Shown piece by piece: positions 45,115 through 63,800 of a stretch of 64,000 nt of DNA. The notes beneath the pieces were generated by a model. It was not told the DNA's origin, did no database searches, and saw only the letters and a list, made by a program, of their open reading frames with translations. The stretch comes from Alphaproteobacteria bacterium. Its GTDB lineage: Bacteria; Pseudomonadota; Alphaproteobacteria; JAPOUT01; G958296285. The stretch lies in NCBI GenBank assembly GCA_965212115.1, contig CBDBUR010000002.1, forward strand, positions 1,025,948 to 1,089,947, written 5' to 3'. Each line of letters opens with the position of its first letter. The first letter of the stretch is position 1. The translations under genes and the position numbers were made by a program.

Positions 45115-45897
45115 TTATAGCGCAGCGCCAACATGGCCGCCATCAACAATGATGGTTGCGCCGGTCATATAGGCACCGGCGCGTGATGCGAGCAGCAAGA
45201 GCGGGCCGGTGAGTTCATCGAGCGCGCCGATGCGGTTCATCGGGATTCGCTGGATCATTTTAATGCCGCTCTCGCTGTCGAGGAAGTCGCTGCTGATGGC
45301 GGTGCGGAAATAGCCGGGCGCGAGCGCATTAACGCGAATATTATGCCGCGCCAATTCGATTGCGATTGTGCGGGTAAATTGTTTGACCCCGGCCTTAGCA
45401 GCGGCGTAGGAGGCGAGCATGAGGCCGGGACGCTCGGCGAGAATCGACGAAATGTTAATGATCGCACCGCCGCTTTTGGCTCTGATCATTCTGTTGGAGG
45501 CTTCTTTAGAGACCCGCCACACGGCGCTGAGATTAGTTTCGATGACATCGTGCCATTCCTCTTCGCAGAGAAGCTGCGCGAAATTGTTGCGCGCCAGGCC
45601 GGCATTATTGATAATGATCGTCGGCATGGAGAGGGTCTGCTCGGCTTCGTCGAAGGCGCTGCGGATGCTTCGGGCGTTTTTGACGTCGGTCTGGATGGCG
45701 ATGGCTTTTTGGTCGGTTGCGGCGCTGATTTTTTCAGCCTGATCTCTGATCTGGTCTAAGCGGCGAGCAGCAAGCACGACATCAGCGCCCGCCTGCGCGA
45801 GCACATGGGCGAAATGTGCGCCGAGCCCGCTCGATGCACCAGTAATGAAGGCCGTTTGCCCCTTCAGATCAAACAAATCGCTAATCGCATTATTCAT
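45115..45897 (-). CDS. Short-chain dehydrogenase/reductase (SDR)
   Basis: 260 aa with 'TGASSGLGAHFA' cofactor binding, 'NNAG' and a catalytic Tyr...Lys ('YAAAKAG'). Confidence 0.85.
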   Translation of the reverse strand: MNNAISDLFDLKGQTAFITGASSGLGAHFAHVLAQAGADVVLAARRLDQIRDQAEKISAATDQKAIAIQTDVKNARSIRSAFDEAEQTLSMPTIIINNAGLARNNFAQLLCEEEWHDVIETNLSAVWRVSKEASNRMIRAKSGGAIINISSILAERPGLMLASYAAAKAGVKQFTRTIAIELARHNIRVNALAPGYFRTAISSDFLDSESGIKMIQRIPMNRIGALDELTGPLLLLASRAGAYMTGATIIVDGGHVGAAL

Positions 45898-45936
45898 GGA
45901 TACCCCCTATTTTGCGGTTTCATGCTAAAAGAGATT

Positions 45937-47997
45937 ATGGCCAAGATAAACCCTATCTTTTGCATTTTGCCTCTTTTGGTTTTGTTGATATCAGGGGCGC
46001 AAGCGGGGTCGTGGCGTGAGAGCGACAATCATCGGTTTCGGGTTTTTTTGGGCTCCTATGACGAAGAACGGCTTTATGGAGGGTTTGCGTTTGAGTTGAA
46101 GGGCAATTGGAAGACCTATTGGAAAAATGCCGGTGATGCGGGTCTTCCGCTCAAACTGCGTAAAGCGAGCTCAGATGTTATGATTCACTGGCCTTCGCCG
46201 CGGCGGTTTTTTTATCAAGATGGCCTTTATTCCTATGTCTATGACAAGCAGGTGGTGATCCCTTTTTCTTTCCCTCATCCCAATTCCGGTAAAGGTGTGA
46301 AGCTGAGAATAATCGGGGAATATTCGGTCTGTGATGTTTTATGCGTTCCCTATACTTTTGACGAGACGCTTGAGATTCCGGTTGCGGCGCGGCGCGCTGA
46401 CGAGGATCAATCGATTCGACACGCGCTTGGCGAGATGCCAAAGAACGTCGCCCAAGATGATGCGCTTGATGTTGTTCTCGCGGCGGATCGCAACATTATC
46501 AATGTGTCATTTCGCGCGCAGCAGCTTGGCGCGGTGCGCGATGTGATGATCGATGGCGGTGATCTCTCTTTGCGCGCGCCAAAAATCATCGCTGATGGGG
46601 ATAAAGTTTCGGCTTTGTTTGATTATCAGGCTTTTTCAAAGAAACAAACAAGATCGCCGCTAGAAAACATCACTCAAGAGATCAAAACGATTCTTGTGCA
46701 AACGGATCGCGGGACGTTTCAGATTTTTGGCGCCGCGCCGACGACGATAACGCCTGCCGCGCCTGAAATGATGTTGTGGTCGTTTATTTTGATTTTGGCA
46801 TCGGCGTTTTTGGGCGGTTTGATTCTCAATATCATGCCGTGCGTTTTGCCGGTGATATCTTTGAAGCTGGCGCAGATGACGCTGCCTGCGGCGTCATTGA
46901 GTCTGCGCGCGCAATTAGGGTGGACGGTTTTTGGCATTTTGCTGTCGTTTGTTTTGCTCGCGGCGATTGTTTATGTGCTGCAGCAGGCGGGCGAGATTGT
47001 CGGCTGGGGTTTTCATTTTCAGCAGCCGGTTTTTGTTTTGTTGATGATGAGCGTCTTGTTGTTTTTTGCATTTGCACAACTGGGATTTTTGCGCTTGGGA
47101 TTTGCGTCGAGTGTACAGGGCGGAATCAACCAATGGCTCGATCGATTTCAGCCGGATCGCCCTGCGTTTCATATTTTTTATGGCGGGGTGATCGCTTTGC
47201 TGGCGACTCCGTGCACGGCGCCTTTTTTAGGCAGCGCGGTGGGGTTTGCGCTGACGCAATCTTTTGCGGTGATTTTGCTGGTTTTTGTGTCGATTGGATT
47301 GGGTCTCGCGGTGCCGCTTTTGATTTTGTTGGCATGGCCAGGATGGGCAAATGACGGCAGCGGGCACGGCTTACGGGCATCGCGCTGGACGGTTTATGTA
47401 AGGAATTTTGCGGCGATTTTGCTCTATGGCTCGGCGCTGTGGCTGCTGTGGGTTTCGTCGGGACAATTAGGTCTTGGCTGGGCGCTCGGTTTTTTTGTGA
47501 CGCTTCACGCGGCGTTGCTGATCTTGGCGCTCGCCGACAGGCGGGCCGCGCGTTATGCGGCGGCGGGGATAATTTTTGCGGTGGTTGTTTCACCGCTGGC
47601 TTTGCCGTCGAGTCCGATAGTAGCGCGTGTGGTCGAAGATGACGGATTGGTCTGGCATATTTTCAGCGAAGCGGAGTTCAAGACGCAAAGACAAAAAGGC
47701 AAGATTGTATTTATTGATATTTCAGCCGATTGGTGTTTGAGCTGCCAATATAACAAAGCAAATGTCTTGCTCGATGACGAAGTGCGGACAGCTTTGGGCA
47801 GCGCGGATGTCTATTTGATGTCGGGTGATTTAACGAAGGTCAATGATAAGATCACGAGTTTCATTCGCAAAGAGGGGCGCGGCGGGATCCCGTTCAACGG
47901 ATTTTATGGCCGCGCGCGCAAAGAAATTCTTAGCGAGATTTTAAGCAAGAAAGCTTTGCTGAAGAGTCTGGAAGCGATCAGGGCGAATAATTATTAA
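45937..47997 (+). CDS. DsbD/ScsB-type transmembrane thiol:disulfide reductase
   Basis: About 687 aa. Signal peptide, an N-terminal periplasmic domain ('KGNWKTYWKNAGDAGL'), a polytopic core with the conserved Cys/Pro segment ('MPCVLPVISLKL') and a C-terminal thioredoxin domain with 'DWCLSCQ' (CxxC). The start is set at the SD-preceded ATG; the track ORF starts at 45805. Confidence 0.75.
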   Translation: MAKINPIFCILPLLVLLISGAQAGSWRESDNHRFRVFLGSYDEERLYGGFAFELKGNWKTYWKNAGDAGLPLKLRKASSDVMIHWPSPRRFFYQDGLYSYVYDKQVVIPFSFPHPNSGKGVKLRIIGEYSVCDVLCVPYTFDETLEIPVAARRADEDQSIRHALGEMPKNVAQDDALDVVLAADRNIINVSFRAQQLGAVRDVMIDGGDLSLRAPKIIADGDKVSALFDYQAFSKKQTRSPLENITQEIKTILVQTDRGTFQIFGAAPTTITPAAPEMMLWSFILILASAFLGGLILNIMPCVLPVISLKLAQMTLPAASLSLRAQLGWTVFGILLSFVLLAAIVYVLQQAGEIVGWGFHFQQPVFVLLMMSVLLFFAFAQLGFLRLGFASSVQGGINQWLDRFQPDRPAFHIFYGGVIALLATPCTAPFLGSAVGFALTQSFAVILLVFVSIGLGLAVPLLILLAWPGWANDGSGHGLRASRWTVYVRNFAAILLYGSALWLLWVSSGQLGLGWALGFFVTLHAALLILALADRRAARYAAAGIIFAVVVSPLALPSSPIVARVVEDDGLVWHIFSEAEFKTQRQKGKIVFIDISADWCLSCQYNKANVLLDDEVRTALGSADVYLMSGDLTKVNDKITSFIRKEGRGGIPFNGFYGRARKEILSEILSKKALLKSLEAIRANNY

Positions 47998-48730
47998 GCG
48001 ACCAGTCATAATCGAGGTGGCTGTTGATGGATGTCTGCTTTGGCAGGTCGGGTTTATATTTTTGGACGAACCGGATGATGTCTTTTTGCGTTCCGAAATC
48101 TTGGGCAAACCACTTAAAAATTTGCGACAGGTTGATCCCGTCGGGAGATGCGTTGACGCCTTTGCGCTTATTGTTGAGGAAAGCGCGGGTTTGGTCGTCG
48201 AGCTGCTGGTTGAGTTTTTTAGCGTTGTAGGGTTCGCGCCTGAGGTCGGGGCAAGAGAGTGAAGCGCACACGATGGCCATATGGATTCGCGGATCGCCCA
48301 TAGGTCTGAGGATTTTATGCTCAATATGGTCGAGGGTGATGGACTGGCCGTTAATGTTCCAGCGATGGATCACCCAAGGCGATCGCCACCATGAGCCGAG
48401 GTTTTTAATTGTTTCGCGCTCGGCCTTTTTGATGATGAGGTCAATGGTGAGGAGGTTGTAAGCATTGATCCAGAAGGCCATTTTCTGACGACCTTTAAGG
48501 CGCGCGGTATCGGCCTTGAGGATTTTATTCATAGCTTTTTTGTGGAGAGGGTTTTTTGCCCAGAGGTCATAGTTGATGAGGTTTGCCGGGATGTTATTTT
48601 TTTTGCCCTTCACGACGTATTGAGCGAGGAGTTTTTGATAAGGGTCGAGGCTGTCGGTTTCTGCGGTGACGTGGCTTGAGAGACCGCCCGCTAGCAAAAC
48701 GAGAAAGAACAAAAGAGGGTTAAAGTTCAT
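47978..48730 (-). CDS. Exported DUF547-family protein
   Basis: 250 aa with a signal peptide ('MNFNPLLFFLVLLAGGLSSHVTA'). The central 'FWINAYNLLTIDLII...CASLSCP' block is characteristic of DUF547. Convergent, and slightly overlapping, with the dsbD-like gene. Confidence 0.55.
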   Translation of the reverse strand: MNFNPLLFFLVLLAGGLSSHVTAETDSLDPYQKLLAQYVVKGKKNNIPANLINYDLWAKNPLHKKAMNKILKADTARLKGRQKMAFWINAYNLLTIDLIIKKAERETIKNLGSWWRSPWVIHRWNINGQSITLDHIEHKILRPMGDPRIHMAIVCASLSCPDLRREPYNAKKLNQQLDDQTRAFLNNKRKGVNASPDGINLSQIFKWFAQDFGTQKDIIRFVQKYKPDLPKQTSINSHLDYDWSLNNYSP

Positions 48731-48898
48731 GGTAACGCCTTATATTAAAATATATTACAGCCTATATGGCAGATGGTCTTGCTGTTTGATAAAAAGCCTC
48801 CAATTTTTTGAGCTTGATAGAATTTTCTTGACTTATAAATGAATAGAAGGCAACAATAAAAAAGGATAGTAGATGTTTAACGGGTGTTTTATTAACAG

Positions 48899-51800
48899 GT
48901 GAATAAAAAGGGAGTTTCCTGCGTTTTGCGAAATTATAGAGCGAGACTGTCGGCGCGCTTTTTCGCCGTTTTTGTAGGTATTTCTGCATTGACTGTAGGG
49001 TCAATAGCGGCAGCTGGCCCTCAGGGGGGCCGGATCACGCAAGGGCAAGGCCGCATCGAGCAGATCGGTAGCCACACCGACATTCGCCAAAACAGCGACT
49101 TTCTTGCGACGCAATGGCAGAATTTTGACATTGGCGCCAATGAGAGCGCGCAGGCTCATCAGCCGAGTGCGTCCTCGCGGCTGCTGATCCGCGTCGATGG
49201 CGCAGGAGCGACGAATATCGCCGGAAGTTATACCTCCAACGGCATCACGATCATAGAGAATCAAAACGGCGTCCAGTTTAGTCGCGGTGCTGTCGTTAAT
49301 GTCGGCGGCCTGCTCGCGACAAGCGCGCGGATTTCGGGTGTTGCAGGGTCGAAATGGACGCTTGATGGAATAGGCGGCGCGGTTGTCAATCACGGGACGA
49401 TCACGGCAGGAGCAGGCGGCGCGGTTCTCGCGGCGGTTCGGGTAGAAAATACCGGCGAGATCACTTCAAACGGCGGCGATGTTGCGCTCGGGGCAGGCGA
49501 GGCCTTTACAGTAGATTTTGCTGGAGGTCTTGTCGGATTTGAGGTCAAAAAAGGCGCGGCAGGTGCAGCACTTGTCAATGAAGGACGAGTTGAAGCGCAA
49601 GGCGGGGTTGTAAAACTCACGGCGCAGGAAGCGCAAGCAGTTCGGGCGAATGTCGTGTCGGTTGGCGGCGTTGTCAAGGCGACGAAGCTGGAGCGTCGCG
49701 GCGGTGTTGTGTATCTTTCGGGCGGCGGCGAAGGGATCAATGAAGTGTCGGGCGCGGTTGAGGCCGATGAAAAGGTTGAAGCGACCGGCAAATATGTTGT
49801 GGTGAAAAGCGGGGCGCAAGTCAAAGCGCCGGAGATTCTCGTTGGTGGTGATTATCAAGGCAAAGGCCCGGTACCGACGGCTTTGCGCACCTTTGTTGAG
49901 CCCGACGCGCTGCTCGATGCCGGAGATAAGGGCCGAGTGATTGTGTGGGCGGATGAGACGACATGGTTTCATGGTCGGCTCAGCGCGCCTGGAGGTTTTG
50001 CGGAGGTTTCGGGCAAAGTGAATCTCGCGGCGGTCAATCTGGCGGGGATCGATGTCGGCACACTGTTGCTTGATCCTAGCACGATCACCATTACAAATGC
50101 TGGAGGAGGAGTAGTCTCTGTAGGTGGACCTGATAATATTTTCAATACTGGTGAGGGCAACAATGTTTTGGTTGCATCAGATACTATTTCAACAGTGCCG
50201 TTAATGATTAGTAATAGCTCATTCAATGATCTCGCTGAGGGCACGACAGTTATTCTGGCAGCGGTTCAAAGTATTCTAGTCACTGCGCCCATCTCGACGA
50301 CCAACAATATCAATCTAACTTTGATAGCTGAAAGCTCTCCGAGCACAAACAACATCGAGCTTAGAGCCAACATCAATATTGGCAGCGGCACTTTGACCCT
50401 CAGTTCAGGAGTCATCAATGCTTTTGGCGCTCGCACACTGACAGCGGGTGTCATTAATATAGAATTTACGCGCGCGAGTTCTGTGGACATAGCTAGTGGA
50501 TTCAATAATACTTTTGCCTCTCTCACCTTTGCGAACACTGTCGTGCCGACATATACCTTTCAGCCTCTTAGGTGTGTTTCGGGCACCGCTTGCAACTTGA
50601 CTGTGTCGGTCGGGCAAACGATTGCCGCCACTTTAGATGCAGGAACTGCGGCCATTACGATTGCCGCAGGGTCTTTAGCTCTTACGTCGGCGAGCTTTGT
50701 GGACGCTGATGGCGGCACGGACGGCCCGATCAGCATCAGTGGCGCAGGCGTTTCGATTACCGCGGGCTCCATTGATACCGAAGGGCGCAATTTGACCATC
50801 AACGCCAGCACGGGCTCTTTGACCTTGACCCTCGCTAGCATCGGCGTCGGGGAGGGCGATTTGAGCATGACGGCGAATGATATCTCGGCGACTACGCTCG
50901 CGCTGACAGCCGCCTCCATCGCGATCACGCTGACAGACGACAGCGATATAAATGTTGGTCTGGGCGGTGTCACCTATGACGGAGATACAAGCCCGACAAT
51001 CACTCTTCCCAGAACCATCACCTTGTCGAGGAATAACTCGATCATCATCAATGCGCCGGGTGCCAACGTGGAATTCGATTCTAGCGGCGACATCACAATC
51101 GGGAGAAATAATTTTACGGGCATTGACAAGGTTGAGATTACCGCTACTTCTCTCCTGACCCAAGGCCGGAATTTGACGATTGCAACCACCCGCGGCGTAG
51201 TCAACTCGATTGTCTTGAACGCTGACATTAACACCACCGCCTCTAGCGGCACGGCAAGGGGCGATATGCTATTTTCAACTAGAAATCTTAGCATAGCTGG
51301 CAGTGCGGCAGGCGAAACGCGCAACTTAGTGGCTGATGACATCACGTTTAATCTCGGACTGGGTATAAACAACGGAACGTTTGACGCCTCAACATCAACA
51401 TTTACGGAGTCATCTACAGAATTCAACGGGATAGGGCCAGAAGATGATGTGCTGGTAGATAATACCAACTTCAATGTTGATGCCAGCGGCACATTGCTCT
51501 CGATTACCACGGCGTTCGGGTTGAATTTTAATGCCGGCGATTTCACTGCGGAGGCTGGCAAGATTCAGCTTGCTCGCCGTACAAGGACAGGCGACAGCGT
51601 TCTTTTGCAACTGTCAGCCACAAACATCACGCTCAGGTCGAACGCGGAGGATGACGCCAACAAGCTCATTGAGGTCGGCTTTGCTGATGACAACAATGTA
51701 TTTACTCGCAATAATAGTGAAGACGATAATGTTGATTTACAGATTGTCGCTTTTAGCGGCGGCGTTATAACACTGGGTGCCAATATCAATGCTGGCACAG

Positions 51801-54800
51801 GCGATATAGAATTAGGGGAGCTCGATGGGACAGGTATTGAAATTATCTCTGATGATGGGCTGGCGCTGACACTCACAGCTGGCAATATAACTATCCATAA
51901 CTCATTTGAAGCGGGCTTGGGCACAGTCGGCGGCGCGGGCACAGCTCTCACCATCAATGCGACAGACATTTTGACTCTTCGGGAAGATATCTCAACAGGC
52001 CTTTCGAGGATTGACCTCAATATAGGGGGCATCAGCGCCTTCGGGTCGCGCACTATCGATGTGCACCGCGCAGACGGCACCATCAATCTTGTCTTTACGA
52101 GCCAGGCGACCCTCAGCGCCGCAGATCCCAATACGAATATCAGCAACATCAGGTTTCGGCGGGGGGCGGCGGCAGATTCACTGACATCTATCAATGTGAC
52201 GCCGACCTATCCTGATCCGTTTAGGGCCTGCACGGCACAAGCAGGCGGCGCTGCCGCATGCGCGTTGAGAAGCCTGGTCGGCGCGGGGCTGCAGGCTGTC
52301 CGGACTTTAAGCGCGACAGTCAGCATCCAGATCAATGTTGACGGCGATTTGACCTTTGCTGCTGGCACAGGCGCAATCACGATCACCGCGCCGACGGTTC
52401 AAATTACTGCCGCCAACATCGACACCTCAAACCGCGATTTGACCATCACTGCCGACACGGGCTCTTTGACCTTGAACGCTGATGTCAATACTGGCACGGG
52501 CGCGCTTGCGCTGACAAGCGCGCTGATCCAAATCGCAGGCACGACAGGCACAGAGCGCGTTTTGATGAGCACGGCAGGCGACATCACGATCACCTCCGCC
52601 GCCAATGTCCTCAGCGGCACATTTGACGGCACTGATTTTACGCAGGCGGATGTTCCTGTCAGCATCACCGCCACCACCAGCGGCAATTTGAACTTGAACG
52701 CGGACATCAATCTCGGCAAGGGCAGCACGCTCACTTTGGAGGGCATGCAGATCGTGCCGATGAAGTCTCTGAAATTAACGTCGGGAGACATGGAGCTGAC
52801 CGGCGTGGTCATGAGCGCAAATGATGTGAGTTTCACGATTGATGCCGGAAGCGACGAAGAAGGCCTTTTGACTCTCAATAATGACATCTCTCTTGCCGCA
52901 GGCGGGCTGAGTGTGAGGGCAGGAACAATTGATGTGACAACCGCCATAACTGTGACAGTGGCTTCAAAGGACAGAGTGTCATTCACCTTCACCAATGAGG
53001 ACGTCAGGACTTTTTCGGATTTGCCCACTTATCCGGGTAATGTCACTTTTGTTGCAACAAATGGAGACATGATTGCCGCCGGGTTGATTACCATGTTTGA
53101 CAATGAGCCACTAACAGAGTGCTCAAGCACACCAGCGACGTGCACACTCATGAGTTCAGGCGATGACGAAGATTTTGAGGCGGCGGCGGCTCTAACGGCG
53201 TCGGCCAGCCTGACGATCATGGTTCCCGGCGGCATATTGACCTTTGCGGCAGGAGAAATCGTGCTTGACGCGCCGACGATTACAATCACTGCGACGAGCA
53301 TTGATTTGAATGGCCGCGCGCTGAAGGTCATCGTCTCTGGCGGCACTTTAACGCTCACCGCGAACATTGTCGATGCGGGCGCGATCAATGTGGGCATAAC
53401 TGACGGCGGCGGCAATGCGGCGATCGCTTTCATGGGTGCCAATCGCTCAATCACAGGCATGAGCGACATAGCTGTCAGCATTTCGGCGAGTTCGATCACA
53501 ACGAACGGCAATAACAATCTCACTATTCAAACTTCGGGAAGCGGCGATTTTGATTTAACCATCTCCGCCAATATCAATGCTGGCACCGGGGCGCTGAGGC
53601 TGATCTCAACCGGCGGCGAGATCGTCAATGGCGGCACCGCCCCGATGCTGACTGCGGCAGGCACAACGCTCGAGCAAAAAGCTTTATTTGGCGCGACGGC
53701 GGCCTTTGTGTTTGAAGCTGCCACCACAGGGCTGACGCTCAAGACCGGCTCGATTTCAGCCGGTGCAGGCGCAAATCAGGATGTTTTAGATTGGATGCTT
53801 GGCTTTAGCAGAGGCCTAACCCTTGAGGCGACCGGCGGCAGCATAACGATTGCAACCGCGATCACGTTCGGGGAAGAGACAAATGTGCAGCCGCGTGATG
53901 TTGGTGATAGCAACCTCAGGTTTGTTGTCAGCGCCGATGACAGCAGCTTGATCCTCAATGCAGACATTCGGACTGGAGGCACTCTCACTTTGGAGGGGCC
54001 GACTGGCACGTCTACTATAGGGGAGGAAGGCGGCATCATTCTTGGCTCTAGTCTCACCTTGTTAAGGGGAGACAAAAATGTCTCGCTGACGGTGGTCGGG
54101 GACGGCAATATCGCCGTCGCTTCGGGTAATGTCGACCTTCTCATCAATGCGACAATTTTTAGCTCTAGCTCGGTAGAGATTTCAGTTGAAGATGGCAATT
54201 TTGATGTCGGCACGGGGGGTTCTTTAGAGCTGAGATCCACTAGCGACATTTCTATCACGAGAACCGGCGCTGACGCTGGTTCTCTTGTTCCTTTTGTTGC
54301 GGCGTCGTTCACGTTCCGAAAATTTTCTCCTTTTGACAACAATCCTTTAGTCGCATTTCCTGCAACCTTCACCTCGCTGACTATCGCTACTAGTCAAAAC
54401 GCCGATCAAACAGTCCATAACTGGATGATTAACACAAATGCCAATTTAACGATTAGAGGCAACGGCAATACCATTGTGGATGCGGCCATCATATCTACGG
54501 GAGCCAGCGCGCGCTCCATCGGCAGCGGCAGCCTCGATTTTCAAGGTAGCAACATCATTCTCAACGCAGACATCACCACTACCGGAGCGATCACCTTGAA
54601 TAGCGCGACAATCGAATTCGATGCAGCTCGCACGCTCACGGGCGGCGCGGTTTCTCTCGGCGGCGCTATCGATGAATCGGTTGGTAATTTTGCCCTCACC
54701 GTCAACGCAAGCGCCGCTTTGACGATCAATAACAATATCAATACCGGCTCCGGCGACCTCAACTTGACCGGCACGACCATCAGTTTCGACGAGGCGCGCA

Positions 54801-57800
54801 CACTCACGGGCGGCGCGGTTACTCTCTCCGGCGTTATCAATGAATCAGTCGCCAATCGCAGCCTCACCATTACCGCAGGCGGCCTGCTGACACTCAATAG
54901 CACCATCAATCTGGGCAACGGCGCTTTGACCGCCACCGCGGCAACAATCTCCGCACCCAACGCCGCCACCACCGTCAGAGCCAATGCCGCCACCTTCACA
55001 TTCACAGAAGCTGCTGCAACTGCTTTCAATACAAGCAACCTCAGCTTTAACGGCGTCACGCCGACATACACCTTGCCCAGAACTCTCAACGCAATAGAAG
55101 AGATCAACTTGCCGGGCGGCGTCATCACCTTCGCAGGCTCATCAGGGCCTATTGCGCTCAGCAACACAACATCAAGCCTCGTCATCGCCGCGGCTTCCAT
55201 CAATACTCAAGGGGATGATGTGGCAATCAGCGTCAGCGGCGCATCTAACAACTTGACCTTGATCGCCAACATCGACGCGCGCACCACCCCTGATTCAGGC
55301 CTCGGCGGCGGCAATATCACATTGGCAAGCCCCAATGCTAGAGTTCAATTCGGCGGCGCAGCAAGCACAACACGCAATTTGTGGGGTGAGAATATCTCGA
55401 TCACTTCTTCATCCTCTCTTCAAGCCAAAGTGTATGACGGCACGACGCCGGGAAGCGATGATATTAATCTCACCATGATGGCTGGCGATAGCGATAGTGG
55501 CATATTGCTTTTGAACATCGGTGGCCTAGGGATAAACGGCGGCGATGTTTCTTTGAAGGGCTACACTATCCAATTTGCGACAGCGACCAGCGCAGATGAT
55601 ACGAGTATCGCTTTAAGAGGCCAGAACATCACGATTGATTCCGATAATGCGGCAGATGATGCGATTCAAGTTGGTGTTATCAGGGGCAGCGTCTTTGCCA
55701 AAAATGATAGCGCGTCGGCAAATGTTGATTTGAACATAGCTGCAGTAGATTCCGGAAAGATCGTATTGGGCGCGAGCATAGATGCTGGTGATGGGGATGT
55801 AGTTTTCCCCACTGATGCTGCAGTGGGAAGCATGGCAGGCCCCCTTGAGCTGACAACATCGTCAGTGAAGCTAACAGGCAGCGCGATAGGGCTCTCCAAT
55901 GTCCAGACGACCGTCGCAGACACAGTTTTGACTTTAGATGGCGGCACTGTATCGTTCAGCGGCGGCCAAATAAATCTTGTTGCAGGCGGCGCAACCAACA
56001 GCGCTTTGATTGTGAGCGCAGAGATGATTTCGTTGCCCGGTTCCCCCACAATAACGGCAAACCGCGCCGAAATCACATTTACAAGCGGCTCAACCGCGTC
56101 TTTTGATTTCAGCCGCGCCACATTTATAACAGCCACGCCGTCATATATTTTGCCAGCAACTTTAACGCAGACGACCGGTAGTATCACGATCGACTTGCCT
56201 GGCGGTGAGGTGGCTTTCTCAGGCACGGGAGACATCGCGATCTCAGCGCCGACTGTTTCGGTCACCGCCAGTGTCTTGGACGCCGTCGCGCGCAATTTGT
56301 CAATCACCTCTTCCGCCGCCGTTTTGACTTTGGGGGCCGATCTTATCACCAGCGGCAATCTCACTTTAGCAGGCGACACGATCGCTTTCATGGGCGGCGC
56401 GCGCACTATTTCCGGCAATGATATTGCGCTTACAGGCGCGGCCTCAGCGACTGACGATCTCACCATCACCGCGACCGGCCTCTTGACTCTCAATGATAAT
56501 ATCACGCTGAGCACCGGCAATTTGAGCGTTAGCACAGGGACAATCTCCGTTCCGAGCGCCATCACGGTGACAGCCGCCTTCGCCGCGAATATCACATTGT
56601 TTGAGTTCACCGGCGAGGTCTTCTCGCCAAGCAATGTGCCGGATTTTGACAACATCAACTTTGTCGATACAAGCTCAAACCCGCTGACTATAACGCCGAC
56701 CTTTACTCAAACGCTGTTTACAGACTGCACAGACACGAGTCAGGCAGCCACCTGCTTGATTAGAAGCGATCAAGATGGCGCGGACTTTGAAGCAGGCCCG
56801 AGTTTGACAGCAACAGCCAGCCTCACGATCAGCGCGCCCGGGGGCACTTTGACTTTCTCAGGCACGGGCGACATCGCGATCACTGCGCCGAGCCTTTCGA
56901 TCACCGCCGCGACCATCGACACTGAAGGGCGCAAGCTGACAATCAGCGGCGGCGGCACCGCGCTGACTCTAGCTGTCGGCAGCATTGACGCGATCATGGA
57001 AGCTGCTGACGGAAACCCGGAAGTTGCCGGTGATATCATTTTCCCGAGCGTTGATGCCGCGCTGATGGCGAGTCTGACATTAAGCGGCAACAACATCACT
57101 TTGCCTGGCTTCAACGAGGCATTCTCTGATAGAGACGACATTACTATTATTGCAAGAGAAACTGTGACCTTGCAGAGGGACATGGCTTTTGGCGGGGGTG
57201 TGACGCCTGGATTTACATTCAGAGATATCGCTAATGCAACAGTCAATACGTTGAGAATATCTGGAAACGGGATCAGATTTGGGTTAACAAGCGACAGCGA
57301 AATTTTGAGCAGTGCTGATTTAGCGACCGTGCTCGCCGACGCTCGAATCCAAGTGGTGGATCGTGAAGGAAATCAGGTTTTGAATATCGATGGCTCCTCG
57401 GGTATTGTACTTTTTAGTGGTAATTTTGGCTCGCCGCTGACAGAGTGCGCAATTGCTGCGTGTGTGCTCAGAACCGGCGGCAGCGGCGATCTCGAAGGTG
57501 TCAACCCGACTTTAGGCGCAGATGACAGCATCACAATTGATGCCCCAGGCGGCGTTTTGACCTTCGCTGATTTTAGCGGTGGGACGACCGAGATCACGAT
57601 CACATCGCCGATCGTTATGATTACCGCGTCTTCCATTGACACCGCAGGCCGCCCCTTATCGATCACCGCCGCCAGCGGCACGATCACTTTGAACACCAAC
57701 ATTGCCGCTGATGCAGGCAACCTCACTTTGACCGCTGACAATATCATTTTGGGCGGCGGCTCGCGCAGCCTTTCGGGCAATGTCGTGACGATTGGGATCA

Positions 57801-60800
57801 CCTCCGCGACAGGCGAGATCACGCTTGCGGGCACGACCAACAACCTCACCATTGAGGCGCGCGGCAACTTGATGCTCGATACGCCAGCGCTTACGGTTGG
57901 AGGCAGACTTTTCTTAACAGCAGGTCGGGGTGGCGATAGTTCAGGCGTCATTTCCTTTGCAAATAGCCTAAACGCCGGCGCCAAACCGTCTATAACAGCT
58001 ACCGCCACCACAAGCCGCGCAACGCCAGCCATCACGCTGGAGCAGGATGAAGAGTATTTTGCCGCAGATGATGCGGGTGATGCGACGAATAGAGGTCCGG
58101 CGATATTTAACACAACACCTGAAGGTATTTTTGCCGGCCCCACGGTTCCCGCGGACACCGACCGGTTATGGATTAATATCGATACGAGCACCTTTAGCCG
58201 GACATTCGGCTCCGGTGTGGGTTATGCGATTTTGAACGCCGACCTCACGGGAGCATCGGGAACAGGAGAGATCACCGCTCGAGTGAGGCTCACATTTGAC
58301 GCTGGCACGGGGGTTCTTTCTTTTGCCGCCGACGTCACGGACACGGCGATCAGGCTTGCCGCGCCGATAATCTCGATCACAGCGGGGAGCTTTGATCTCG
58401 GCAGCAAAACTTTGATCATCACGACCGAAGGCGGCGATCTTGAGCTCACTGGCGACAGCACAAACGGCTTTTCATTCATGAGCACTGCCACCGCGCCTGC
58501 CACTGGCCATGTGCTTGTCATCGATACCGGCGCTCTCATTGTCACCGGCACACCGGCCACGCCGTTGTTTGATGTGCGCAGCCTGTCTGTCACGCAAACC
58601 GCCGCCTTTGCCGACGCGTCGCCTTTTAGATTCACCAATGTCACGGGGTTGACCCTCATGACAGCGGCAGATCAAACGATCGCCAGCTGGATGATCGCAA
58701 GCGGTCGGGATTTGTCGGTTGCCTCGACTAGCGGCGATGTCATCGTGGCTGCGGAGATCACGAGCGCGGCCATTGGCGCGGGCGACCTCACTTTGATTGC
58801 CCCCGAAAGCTCGTCTCAGGTTCAGATCAGCGCGTCTATTACAACCGGCGGCGATCTCATTGTGCGCGGCGGCGGCGGGGTCTTGTTTGATGACGATGAC
58901 AGCTTGGCATCCACCGCGCTGGTCTTGACCTTAACCGGCGCGTCGCTCATTTTTGGCGGCGACATCACAGCCGATGATGGCGTTGATATTGCTTTGATGG
59001 CGACAGGCGCAGGCAGCGCAGGCAATATCACCTTTGAGAGCGATGTTTCTTCGATCATGGTCAGCGGTGATGGCGTGGGCGGCACATTCACGGTGGACGC
59101 GAATGCAATTATCACCACCTTCAACGCCACGACGCTAGTTTCAGCAACTATTGATTTAACGCAGGCCGCGCCGTTTGTTACCAGGCTATTCATTTTTTCA
59201 ACCGCAATCGTCAATCAACTGACTTTGGCAACCACCACCACCGCCATCCAGCAGGTTAGAGCTTGGATGCACGATACTGCAGGCAATTGGGGCTTCGCCC
59301 TCACGGTTAGTGCAGGCGCGATCCGCGTGGGCGACCTCAACACCGGCACCAACGATCTTGTTTTGTCCGCCAACAGAATCAGAATTGAAGTCCTTGGAAG
59401 CTTAAGCAACCCGACCGAGCTATCCGGCAATAATGTTGTGCTCAGCGCGCCAGGCGGCATTGAAGCTGGGTCTTTAAGTCTCTCCGCCACCCCGGACGAC
59501 ATCCGCATCAGTTCGAGCGCCACCGTGTCCGGCACCAGCTTGCAAATCTCTGGAGATATTAATCTGGGCACCAACGCGAGTTCAACGCTTACTTTGTCGG
59601 GGATGTCGTTTGGCGGCGACGCCTCGAGTGCGCTCACCACCTCTGGGAGCGTCACTTTCAACCTGCGCAGCACCACAAGCGCGTTTGACGCCACCGCCCC
59701 CTATAATGTTGATGCCGTGGCTACCGCTTTGAACCTCATAGTCAATAATGACGCCGCAACGCCTCAGCCGCTCCAAAGCTGGATGACTGATTTTGCAACC
59801 GCCAACAAAACTCTGTCTCTGACATCGGCCTCTGGCACGATTGACATTGACGCAGATATTTCCATCAGCGGCAGCCTCACGATCAACGCGCACACGCTTG
59901 ATACATCTGACCGCGACCTGTCGATCAGCGCGGCTAATATCGATATAGAGATCACGACGGGCGAAGTCGTTTTGGGAGCTAACGATCTCACTGTTGCGGC
60001 CAGCGGCACTTTGCGGTTCGTCGTTACAGGCGGCTTGAGCGCCGTTGATGTCAGCGACGCCGTCACGGCCAACACGATCAGCTTGACCGCAGGCTCAGGC
60101 GCCATCGACGGCAGCGGCACATTGGAAGTCCAAACAATCGCCCTGATCCAAGAGAATACGTTTGTCGCCACCGCGCCGTTCACCTTTGATGCAGATGTAG
60201 CCGCGCTGGCTCTCACAGTCACGCGGTCATCGTCGGCGACGCAGCCGCTCCAGACTTGGATGGAGACTTCTGATCGCAGTCTCAGCCTCACCTTCACCAA
60301 CGGCATCATTGAGTTCAGGCGCGTCCTTGACTTTGGCACGGCAGGCGACCTCGCTTTGTCGGCGACGCAAATTCGCATTGGGAGTGTTCCCGCCACGCCA
60401 ATCACAGTGGTCGCCAATAATATCAGTCTCACTGCTACTAGAAATGATTCTGGCATTGAAGCCTTTGCGTCAAGTGGGAATTTTCTCAACGCTCGTTTCA
60501 ATATGACCATAACAGCGCAGAGGAATTTGATGCTCGTCGGCGATTTTACTGTCGCAAGAGGCACTAACAATGTCTTTACGCTGGAGGCAGGCGCAGGCGC
60601 AGGTGTTACTGATGGTGCCATCACCACGACAGGTTCTTCTGAGGTCGACACAACAAACTTGAGACTCGTCCAAGATGCGGCCTTTGCCGATAATTTATTC
60701 ACAATTACGGTTAATAATGGAGAGTACCGCGAGCCCTTATCCAGCACGCTTGAGCTGGACACCAAAGCAGCGCAGGTTATCCATGGCTGGATGCTTTTCC

Positions 60801-63800
60801 CCGGCATTAATCTGGATTTGACAAGCACTGCGGAAATTATCATCAGGCGCAACATCGATCTTGTCCGAAATCTAGCCGATGGCATTGGTGGGACAGATAA
60901 TCGGCGCAGCAATCTCGCTTTGAGCGGCACCGAGATTCAAATTGAACGCGATGCGAGTGCCGCGCGCTTCATAGAGGCCAACAATATCAGCCTTACGGCC
61001 AGCGCTGCGGCGGGCATCAGAATTGGGACTTTCTCAGGCGATACTTTCACGCCAGCGGTCGCAGCGGATGCTTTTGCTCTGGCTATCCGAGCTGACGGCA
61101 ATTTGACGCTGGCGACCCCCAGCCTCAATGTTGGGGGAGGCGCTCTGACGCTCGTGGCTGGCAACGATGTCGATCTTCTCAGCACCGTCAGCCCCAATGT
61201 TGACGCCGACATTGATTTTGGCACCCTGCCTGACATCACGGCGTCGTCGGTTGCGCTGCGCAAGGGCGGAGCCGTCTTTGGTTCGAGCCCGCCTGCGACG
61301 TTCCAAGATGCTGACGGCACGGCTCTGTCTGAGGGCATGATAACGGCTAGATATACCGGAGATGCCGCCGCGCAAACAGATGAAAACTGGTTCACCATCG
61401 CATTTATTTCGAATCCCTTTGTCATGACGCCGGGCGGCACTGACGATCTTGCGGTTTCCGGTGTCATTCAGCGCAGCGCCGCGATCACCATAGACATCGG
61501 CACAGGAACGCTCACTTTCAACGGCAGCGGCGGCATCATTTTGCAGGGGACGGCGATAGCGATCACAGCGGGCAGCATCGATCTTGAAGGCCGCGCCTTG
61601 ACGATCACCGCCACGGGCACATTGATGATCACCGCGAACATAGCCAATGCGCAAATGATTGAAGTTGTCGGCGCCACCACTTTGTCTTTCCTGGGCGCGA
61701 CGCGCACAATCACCGGCATGACCGGCGATATTGATGTTGTTCTCAATGTGAGCGCGATCACCCTTCCTGATGACGGCACTCTGACTGTTTCGTCGCAGGG
61801 CGGTTTGGAGATTGGCGGCGACATCACGATTGGCGGCGCCGGGGCGCTGACTTTGACAGCCGACTCAAATGACAATGCCACAGATGGAGCCATTACCAAT
61901 GGCGGCGGCGCGGGCACGCTTTCTGCGGCGAGCGTGACCCTCACGCATGATGTTGGCTTTGGCACTGGCTTGTTTGCTCTGCCCGCCGCGGTGACTTCGC
62001 TGGCTCTCACGGCCAATGGCAGCACCACGCAGTTCGTCCAAACGTGGATGTTGAATGACAGCGCCACTAGCTCTGCCGCCAACAATAGAGGCTTCACCTT
62101 CACGGCGACTAGCGCACAGATTTCGGTCGGGCTTGATATTGCCGCAGGCACCGCCGCTCTCGTTTTGAATGGCACCGATCTGGCTTTTGGCACTGATCGC
62201 TCTTTGTCTGGCAGCAACATTACGCTTAGCGGAGCAATGACCGCGACCAACTCACTCACCGTCGCCGCGAGCGGCAACTTAATGATTGGCGGCAATATAA
62301 CTCTTGCAGCCAACAGCGATGGCGATGCCACCACGCTGACCCTCAATGCGGGTGTTGGCGGCACAGGAACAGTCTCCGAAACGGTGTCGGGAAGCCCAAC
62401 CCTGACCGCAGGGACGGTCACTATCGATCATGATGGCGCTTTCCCCTTTGATCTGTTCGCTACTGCCTCTGCTGTCGGCATGTGGGATCTTGCATCATCA
62501 GGCAGCAACAGTTTCGCGATCTACAACTGGATGTTTGGGGTGGGAGAATCCTTGAAATTAAACATTCCAAACGGCCCGCTCACCATTGGCGTCTCTCGTA
62601 TCACGAACGTTGACGTTGGCTCCGCCGGGACCATTGATCTGAATGCTAGTGCTATTACAATCAATGATAACAGCCCAAGCACAACAGCAACAATCACATT
62701 ACGCGGTGGAACTATAACGTTGAGGAGCGGCGTCGGCTTATCCAACATTGCCTCAGGAAGCGAGAGCCTCGCCGTCGTCGCGCAAAACGTTTTGACGCTC
62801 GCTGCCTCCTTCATTGACTTGAGATCCGGCACCCTCTCGCTGACGGGGAGCACAATAGTCAACGACAGCGGCTCCGCTTTGGCGTTGACTGCGGCAATTG
62901 TCAATTTGACGCAAACCAGCACGACGGCCACCGCGGTGTTTGCCTCAGATATATTCACGCTGGCTGACGCCGTGAATGAGTTAAATATCACGCTTAGTGC
63001 GGCGTCCACGCAGTCCGAGACGGCGACGCAGATTCTCCATCCGTGGATGCTCCAGCAAGGCGGTTCGGATGATGCCGGCAGAGACGTAACACTCACTGCG
63101 ACCGACGCTGTCATTCAAGTGGCGCGCACTTTCACCATCAGCGATCTCAATTTGAGCGGCGCTTCAATCACGACCGATGCTACCGCGCGCACCGTGACTG
63201 CGGGAACGATCACGCTCGACGGGCCGGTTGAGCCGGGCAGCGCACTCACGCTCGCGGCGACAGGCACATCGAACGGCGCTCTGACACTAGGAAGCCGCAC
63301 GACAGCCATCACGAGCTCGAATGACCTGACGCTGTCAACCAATGGCACGATCTCTTTTGCCGCCAGCAGTCTGGAGATCGTCGGTGATAACATCTCGCTC
63401 AATGGAGAGATCCCCGTGACCACTTCCGGCGCGCTTGCTGCGGCGCGCGTCATCACGGGAACGGCCTCTAACCCCGCGCTCACCATCACAGCCCTGCATG
63501 ATGTTAGGATTAACATTCACATCAATATCGGCGGCGGCGCTTTGGAGATCACCGCTGGCAATCAGGCAGGCGATGGCACGGGCAGCACAAGTGAAACTGG
63601 TCTCATTGAGTTCCGGAACGGAGATACCGTCACGACTGTTACAAACACGCCTCTGCCGCCAGCCATCAATATCACGATGGGCAGCGTTGTGTTGGTGCAG
63701 GATGGCGCACTTTTCGTCAATGATCGTCCTGCGCTGTTCTTTGATTCTAATTTTGATCCTGCGAACGCGATAGAAAGCACCGGCAATCCTGATCAAATCA

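Follow-up and report, generated by a model that had tools for sequence, protein, structure and literature searches.

Proteins exported by type V secretion systems carry few cysteines, placed a few residues apart, and their oxidation in the periplasm gives small loops which do not block translocation across the outer membrane (PMC8151025; PMC3546941). The Shigella autotransporter IcsA hosts a short loop (C375-C379) that is formed in the periplasm in a DsbB-dependent manner, is tolerated during export and constrains the conformation of the protein at the cell surface (PMC9769942). The paired cysteines of the VacA and Ssp passengers, and loops engineered in Pet and Hbp, indicate that type V export admits disulfide loops only if they are small (cited in PMC9769942, PMC8151025, PMC3546941). 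In HMW1 and HxuA, which are TpsA proteins, a C-terminal disulfide loop serves as an anchor (PMC5422565, PMC8151025). Here we analyse a giant TpsA-type gene found in a stretch of 64,000 nucleotides (the window) of an alphaproteobacterial assembly (GCA_965212115.1, contig CBDBUR010000002.1, positions 1,025,948 to 1,089,947), the product of which, hereafter the window protein, features five short paired-cysteine loops, each located at the same position of a repeated module.

The window protein fits the short-range rule of type V secreted proteins, cysteines being scarce and found only as close consecutive pairs. Disulfide loops in autotransporter passengers are reportedly dealt with also by Leyton et al. 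(J Biol Chem 2011, 286:42283; in the reference list of PMC9769942). IcsA resembles the window protein in having a close pair, with 4 residues between the cysteines, in the central part of a secreted passenger, which in IcsA is beta-helical. However, IcsA has one pair and is a type Va protein, whereas the window protein is a type Vb TpsA with five pairs (up to seven occur in its relatives), set at a fixed module position, and belongs to a family in which a cysteine-less alternative connector exists. VacA, Ssp, Pet and Hbp share the low cysteine content and the close pairing, but in VacA and Ssp the pair is a single one, commonly spaced by 11 residues and lying towards the passenger's C-terminal end, with neither repetition nor module context. 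HMW1 and HxuA are TpsA proteins with a short disulfide loop, and about 28 relatives of the window protein similarly have a cysteine pair in the last 15 or so residues. Yet, the HMW1 and HxuA loop is a single, periplasmic C-terminal anchor, while the loops in question are internal, multiple and presumably exported, and the C-terminus of the window gene lies outside the window. In the literature searched, no description of recurrent cysteine loops inside a repeated TpsA module was found. The opinion, expressed in a preliminary description of this DNA, that such loops are not a described feature is thus correct as to their recurrence in a module, but not as to the small-loop rule, which has been described (PMC8151025, PMC3546941, PMC9769942).

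Past the signal region, the 4,990 amino acids (aa) of the window protein include exactly 10 cysteines, all arranged in five pairs 4 to 9 residues apart (in order, C-x5-C, C-x9-C, C-x6-C, C-x8-C and C-x4-C). One further cysteine, at aa 9, resides in the signal-peptide region. Coordinates and peptides given earlier for the five pairs match the translation exactly. Five successive close pairs were never obtained in 200,000 random placements of 10 cysteines in 4,990 residues (pairs at most 11 apart), and the analytic estimate of the chance occurrence of the pattern is about 2e-12. In BLAST self-comparison and multiple alignments the five pairs share their columns, and each precedes the element 'ITAxxIDTxGRxLTI' by 48-55 aa, within the 40-60 aa proposed beforehand. 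The pairs do occupy equivalent positions of homologous modules. Other details of the loop context are less uniform. The upstream 'PTY/PTF' is clear in the loops at aa 560, 1112 and 2611, but weak or displaced at 1409 and 2851; the acidic or Gly-rich stretch said to follow each loop is evident at 1409, 2611 and 2851, but weak in the other two.

A hidden Markov model (HMM) of the core identified the 'ITAxxIDTxGRxLTI' element 10 times in the window protein. Since there are five pairs, only 5 of 10 modules carry a loop, and the initial count of about five macro-repeats holds for loop-bearing modules but not for the modules as a whole. Modules are not in tandem, but dispersed among other repeats along the protein. 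Successive loops are separated by 552, 297, 1202 and 240 aa, and cysteines are absent from the final 2,179 aa encoded within the window. The idea of evenly spaced, periodic loops must be abandoned in view of these gaps, and of the lack of loops in half of the modules and in all modules of P0058, the relative considered below.

An HMMER profile of the five window modules was searched exhaustively against 1.84 billion (1.84e9) representative proteins. Only 73 proteins were matched, most of them 2,000-7,800 aa in size and endowed with the same two-partner secretion (TPS) domain. Genomic relatives belong to uncultured Alphaproteobacteria. One is OZ243043.1, the 1.6 Mb chromosome of a metagenome-assembled genome (MAG), which is 70% identical over the TPS domain; the others are contigs of one European Nucleotide Archive (ENA) metagenome, and on some of these several giant genes follow one another in tandem. 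Paired cysteines were revealed by translated searches at the equivalent place in homologues from loci L002 ('PRDCGGEAVCELTS', 'LGCVDPVNCILD', 'PSPCLADPCRLGT') and L003 ('TGCTVGACVINR', 'VDCSHGAQAADCAITR', 'TDCSNEEQDAECLITR'), and the pairs are therefore kept in homologous giants.

Cysteines were counted throughout the family beyond residue 45, to leave aside the signal region, with three outlier hits omitted. They make up 0.18% of the residues, and 315 of 327 have a partner within 15 residues. Upstream of the core two cysteines are found in 85 modules and none in 88, one and three cysteines being found in a single module each. Pairs fall into three classes. The first includes the 85 module loops, plus ten or so under the core threshold. 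Four to six residues separate the cysteines in 78/85 module loops, nine at most, and the loop always precedes the core by 34-46 aa (median 40). Up to seven loops occur per relative, and cysteine-bearing modules are skewed to the N-terminal 70% of the proteins. The residue before the first cysteine (C1) is mostly D, G or N, and the second one after the second cysteine (C2) is L or I in 83/87 cases. The second class corresponds to the motif 'F[ST]xxxxC-x4-8-C-[TV]xxTP', which is followed by a stop and has its cysteine pair within the last 15 or so residues in about 28 full-length members. The terminal pair, noticed in P0045-P0111, equals the internal loops in size and recalls the HMW1/HxuA disulfide anchor. 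The third class is a CxxC pair found in relatives within 'GDLxAC.TCTLTA', ahead of another repeat type, and missing in the window protein. The extended consensus 'GTGDLxAC.TCTLTA..L.L.Q.G.F' opens WM-type repeats in P0043, P0044, P0053, P0056, P0057, P0081, P0085 and others.

Modules of different proteins that are at least 55% identical always share the same cysteine state. A seeming gain or loss of the pair at high identity turned out to be a counting artefact, due to one module with a third cysteine. In turn, both length and sequence of the loop drift among homologous modules (CLEDPC, CPVGEADC, CAVGEADLLC, CADPADC). Two-or-none occurrence, and cysteines which stay fixed while the loop between them drifts, are the signature expected of a disulfide-bonded pair. 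As a control, five canonical plasmid-borne TpsA proteins were examined, and found to have 0, 1, 2, 4 (two close pairs) and 0 cysteines, with no recurrent loops; they too conform to the short-range rule of type V secretion.

The place of the loop within the module was defined by aligning 139 family modules, 84 cysteine-bearing and 55 Trp-type. Both cysteine columns are occupied by cysteine in 84/84 modules of the former type. In Trp-type modules the first column is a gap, and the second hosts a hydrophobic residue (I, F, V or L). From one BLAST alignment to P0058, Trp seemed to take the place of the first cysteine; the 139-module alignment led us to reject this substitution, because the Trp of cysteine-less modules aligns with a conserved Phe located 20-25 aa upstream of C1, and not with a cysteine. 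Cysteine-bearing modules have an insertion of 15-25 aa, made of 'PTYxF', a Pro-rich or variable linker and the loop, while the cysteine-less connector is shorter and contains the Trp. The insertion would be fastened, at its end, to a strand position that faces the core. In an AlphaFold2 model of aa 2521-2730, obtained with 43 family modules, short strands are predicted at residues 2-51 and 99-173, separated by a less regular connector. C2 is model residue 100, and would lie inside the strand 99-103; pLDDT values near the loop are 74-85.

We propose, with a probability of about 0.7 and on the basis of sequence comparisons, that each cysteine pair forms a small intramolecular disulfide, closing a loop of 4-9 residues that staples the connector. 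The bond would fasten the end of the inserted 15-25 aa connector ('PTYxF', linker, [DGN]-C-x4-9-C-x-[LI]-[GT]) to the beta-strand with which a conserved module, about 200 aa in length, begins. Such modules would be scattered over a giant exoprotein, which is beta-solenoid-like and would leave the cell by two-partner (type Vb) secretion. From what is known of the Dsb system and of type V secretion, the chain would reach the periplasm unfolded, and DsbA would oxidise consecutive cysteines. As partners are neighbours in the sequence, only tiny loops would form, and a chain exceeding 5,000 aa would be spared long-range mispairing. These loops could plausibly traverse the TpsB pore and, after export, the cystine may locally rigidify the connector, or nucleate its folding. 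Loops may have been kept short because type V secretion lets only small loops pass.

Several data weigh against this stapling model. The confidence of the module model is moderate (mean pLDDT 77.6, pTM 0.60). When the module model was compared with the PDB by Foldseek, no hit was significant (best E=1.3). Beta-helices figure only among the weak hits, with Ag43 and the FHA secretion domain as examples, and the fold is thus best viewed as a presumed beta-helix. P0058 (7,821 aa), the closest full-length relative, lacks module loops altogether. Taken together with the loop-less half of the modules in the window protein, this makes any stabilising role dispensable, and the staple an accessory. In the 48.9 kb of the window that precede the giant gene, none of the open reading frames (ORFs) of 440 aa or more encodes a TpsB (POTRA domains and an Omp85 barrel). 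Since the 3' end of the gene falls outside the window as well, it is the TPS domain that speaks for two-partner export. Finally, the C-terminal pair of the relatives has the same size as the internal loops; if it were a plug of the HMW1 type, this would fit poorly with internal loops freely passing the pore.

The drift in sequence and length between fixed cysteines is reminiscent of displayed variable loops, and the loops sit in a connector that is inserted relative to cysteine-less modules. They could accordingly be functional surface elements, either redox-sensitive hinges or ligand/receptor-recognition loops spread along the fibre, and the short-spaced pair of IcsA, which affects surface conformation and has been likened to redox switches (PMC9769942), lends some credit to the idea. 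Yet, the loops are poor recognition material, being mostly 4-6 residues long, dominated by A, G, T, D, I and V, with some simple variants that recur (IIAA, TVAA, TIAV). Loop presence is moreover set by the module subtype and invariant at high identity, and half of the modules, as well as whole relatives, do without. We consider a surface function of this kind unlikely.

A broader proposal, which we hold to be decidedly unlikely, takes giant anchored TpsA fibres to be a new class, with the internal loops as programmed points of control and the C-terminal pair as a plug of the TpsB pore. Control may consist in oxidation occurring only after export, in redox-gated hinges or in pause sites. Were this true, the context of the loop, and not its size, would decide passage through the type Vb channel.

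A role during export, with loops working as speed bumps or ratchets which pause or orient translocation through TpsB, would relate them to the terminal pair of the relatives, which may hold the fibre in the pore as in HMW1 and HxuA. The relatives end in 'C-x4-8-C-TxxTP', resembling the HMW1/HxuA C-terminal disulfide anchor (PMC5422565, PMC8151025), and match the internal loops in size; the bias of cysteine-bearing modules to the N-terminal 70% of the proteins, and the DsbD-like gene adjoining the giant gene here and in L003, could be interpreted in the same sense. Published reports, however, present small loops as simply tolerated and do not make them signals for a pause (PMC8151025, PMC9769942), five other loci lack the DsbD linkage, and there is no sign of a compensating pause element in the half of the modules which are loop-less. 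The proposal is purely speculative, and quite improbable in our opinion.

Thiols 4-9 residues apart can chelate soft metals, and relatives also have CxxC pairs. That the cysteines are kept reduced and bind a metal or a cofactor, or form intermolecular disulfides bundling the fibres, is nonetheless very improbable. Each site would provide two ligands only, at a variable spacing of 4-9 residues, with no conserved His, Cys or Asp partners; no CxxCH motif was found, and an exported protein crosses the oxidising periplasm. Strict two-or-none occurrence with adjacent partners suits an intramolecular bond better than an intermolecular one. As to the pattern being a product of chance, or of the low-complexity, T/A/G/S-rich composition, or the frame not being a real gene, this can practically be dismissed, given a chance probability of about 1e-12, an open frame of 15.1 kb with a TPS domain, and the presence in independent assemblies of homologues with paired cysteines at the equivalent position, a family-wide conservation which refutes an artefact.

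The features of the region are listed below.

Table 1. Features of the giant TpsA-type gene and of the adjacent upstream genes (window coordinates)
Feature	Position	Strand	Remarks
DsbD-like thiol:disulfide interchange protein	45805-47997	+	DsbD_N, DsbD_TM, Thioredoxin_7; immediately upstream of giant gene
DUF547-family gene	47978-48730	-	Between DsbD-like and giant genes; overlaps end of DsbD-like ORF by 20 bases
Giant TpsA-type exoprotein gene, 5' part	48899..64000	+	At least 5,034 aa; 3' end beyond window; from open frame, translation and homologue lengths
TPS secretion domain, aa 40-279	49013..49732	+	Pfam PF05860 E=2e-17; NCBIfam TIGR01901 E=5e-12
Cys loop 1, CVSGTAC, aa 560-566	50573..50593	+	Cys codons at 50573/50591
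Module core 1 ('xIxIxAxxVSITAGSIDTEGRNLTI...'), after loop 1	50726..50842	+	Core HMM iE=2.5e-17
Degenerate module core (VEITATSLLTQGRNLTI), without Cys loop, aa 746	51131..51229	+	Core HMM iE=2.4e-4
Cys loop 2, CTAQAGGAAAC, aa 1112-1122	52229..52261	+	Cys codons at 52229/52259
Module core 2, after loop 2	52373..52489	+	Core HMM
Cys loop 3, CSSTPATC, aa 1409-1416	53120..53143	+	Cys codons at 53120/53141
Module core 3, after loop 3	53255..53371	+	Core HMM
Cys-less module core, aa 2097	55154..55270	+	'TPTYTLP' kept, loop and acidic stretch deleted; core HMM, alignment
Cys-less module core, aa 2456	56231..56347	+	'TPSYILP' kept, loop and acidic stretch deleted; core HMM, alignment
Cys loop 4, CTDTSQAATC, aa 2611-2620	56726..56755	+	Cys codons at 56726/56753; its module was modelled
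Module core 4, after loop 4	56870..56986	+	Core HMM
Cys loop 5, CAIAAC, aa 2851-2856	57446..57463	+	Cys codons at 57446/57461
Module core 5, after loop 5	57590..57706	+	Core HMM
Module core with Trp-type Cys-less connector 'DRLWINID', aa 3161	58346..58462	+	Core HMM, alignment
Module core with Trp-type Cys-less connector 'DENWFTIA', aa 4223	61535..61645	+	Core HMM, alignment

The plus-strand frame 48896-64000 is devoid of stop codons over 5,035 codons, up to the window limit. Where translation starts is uncertain, the earliest candidate being a GTG at 48899. Read by eye, and with the same reservation about the start, the N-terminus is basic and continues into a hydrophobic stretch (RNYRARLSARFFAVFVGISALTVGSIAAA, then GPQ), a candidate Sec signal peptide. 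The presence of the TPS domain assigns the protein to the TpsA-type exoproteins of two-partner (type Vb) secretion. The site which is conserved as 'NPNGI' in TPS domains reads 'ENQNGV' in the translation. The domain is the sole part of the giant protein matched by the curated family libraries Pfam and NCBIfam. T, A, G, S, L, I, N and D abound in the following 4,750 aa or so, which gave zero matches to families of either library, FHA repeat families included. Fil_haemagg and Fil_haemagg_2 repeats of Pfam were not detected at E<=0.01 across 5,034 aa, and the best match of a single module to PF05594 is below threshold (E=0.27, 12 bits vs a cut-off of 21.5). The N-terminal TPS domain, the giant size and the repetitive, beta-rich, T/A/G/S/N-rich sequence are reminiscent of FHA and CdiA shafts, but no FHA repeat family (PF05594, PF13332) exceeds the threshold in either the window protein or the modules. 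A shaft of the FHA/CdiA type, as assumed at first, is therefore not borne out at the sequence level. Relatives, in addition, have no PT-VENN or toxin end, and no further Pfam domain after the cysteine pair and the 'TxxTP', which argues against CdiA.

A second type of repeat dominates the distal part of the protein. It is about 150-250 aa long, has no Pfam annotation, and is marked by twelve 'Q.[VIL]..WM' motifs (QTVHNWM, PLQSWMT, LQTWMET, ILHPWML etc.), located approximately at 53790-63050 (aa 1633-4717). In several relatives (P0042, P0045-P0051) internal Gly-rich 'GGxGGxG...' runs, such as GGRGGDGGDV and GGNGGSGGAV, are found between WM repeats; none was noticed in the window protein. The final part of the window (63740-64000, aa 4950-5035 or so; 'IIISYGGTESQLQVDWAASLL...IRLVLNAGTG') resembles the onset of another Trp-type, cysteine-less connector, the module core of which would fall just past the window end.

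The giant gene is surrounded by ordinary chromosomal genes, encoding aconitase, 2-oxoglutarate dehydrogenase, ATP synthase, PriA and the DsbD-like protein. A DsbD-like gene adjoins the giant gene also in the 70%-identical MAG locus L003 (6890-8974). That DsbD could be a dedicated partner of the giant protein was considered and rejected, as the linkage holds in 2/7 loci; given the absence of the gene beside the giants of the five other related loci, the adjacency probably reflects local synteny and not a functional pairing. Similarly, no TpsB gene was called within 10 kb upstream of the giants in loci L001, L002 and L007-L009. Loci L002, L007 and L009 (ENA sample ERZ25069326; contigs of 0.7-1.9 Mb) host several giant TpsA genes, some arranged head-to-tail, and many giant genes in the relatives from this sample are broken by frameshifts, the assemblies being made of low-coverage long reads. 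Other searches were less fruitful. A word-index homologue search with a two-module segment found no relatives, the giants being apparently out of its reach, and a TPS-domain query retrieved only fragments shorter than 700 aa, the source being long-read assemblies with low coverage and frameshifts. No relative turned up in two metagenome scans, one based on the C-terminal portion of the window protein and the other on its TPS domain. A profile search of PDB sequences gave no meaningful match, the best (E=0.024) being a phage tail-tip protein.

The elements of novelty are a small, unannotated family of giant alphaproteobacterial TpsA proteins; a short loop, of the disulfide type as judged from its sequence, which occupies a constant place in a repeated module and is present in as many as seven copies per protein; and, along with it, a cysteine-less alternative connector and a conserved terminal cysteine pair in relatives. 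As the underlying principle was already known, the gain is incremental rather than conceptual. In practical terms, the signature [DGN]-C-x4-9-C-x-[LI]-[GT], about 40 aa before 'xVSITAGxIDIGxRxLTI', may be exploited to annotate proteins for which curated libraries recognise nothing but the TPS domain. Matched modules, some stapled and others not, would suit tests of what a short-range disulfide contributes when a beta-solenoid connector folds, or to its stability. Provided that the cysteines are indeed joined as disulfides, nature has carried out in this family an experiment on the amount of folded or cross-linked structure that a TpsB channel lets pass: chains of 2,000-7,800 aa carry as many as seven short loops, and a terminal pair in addition.

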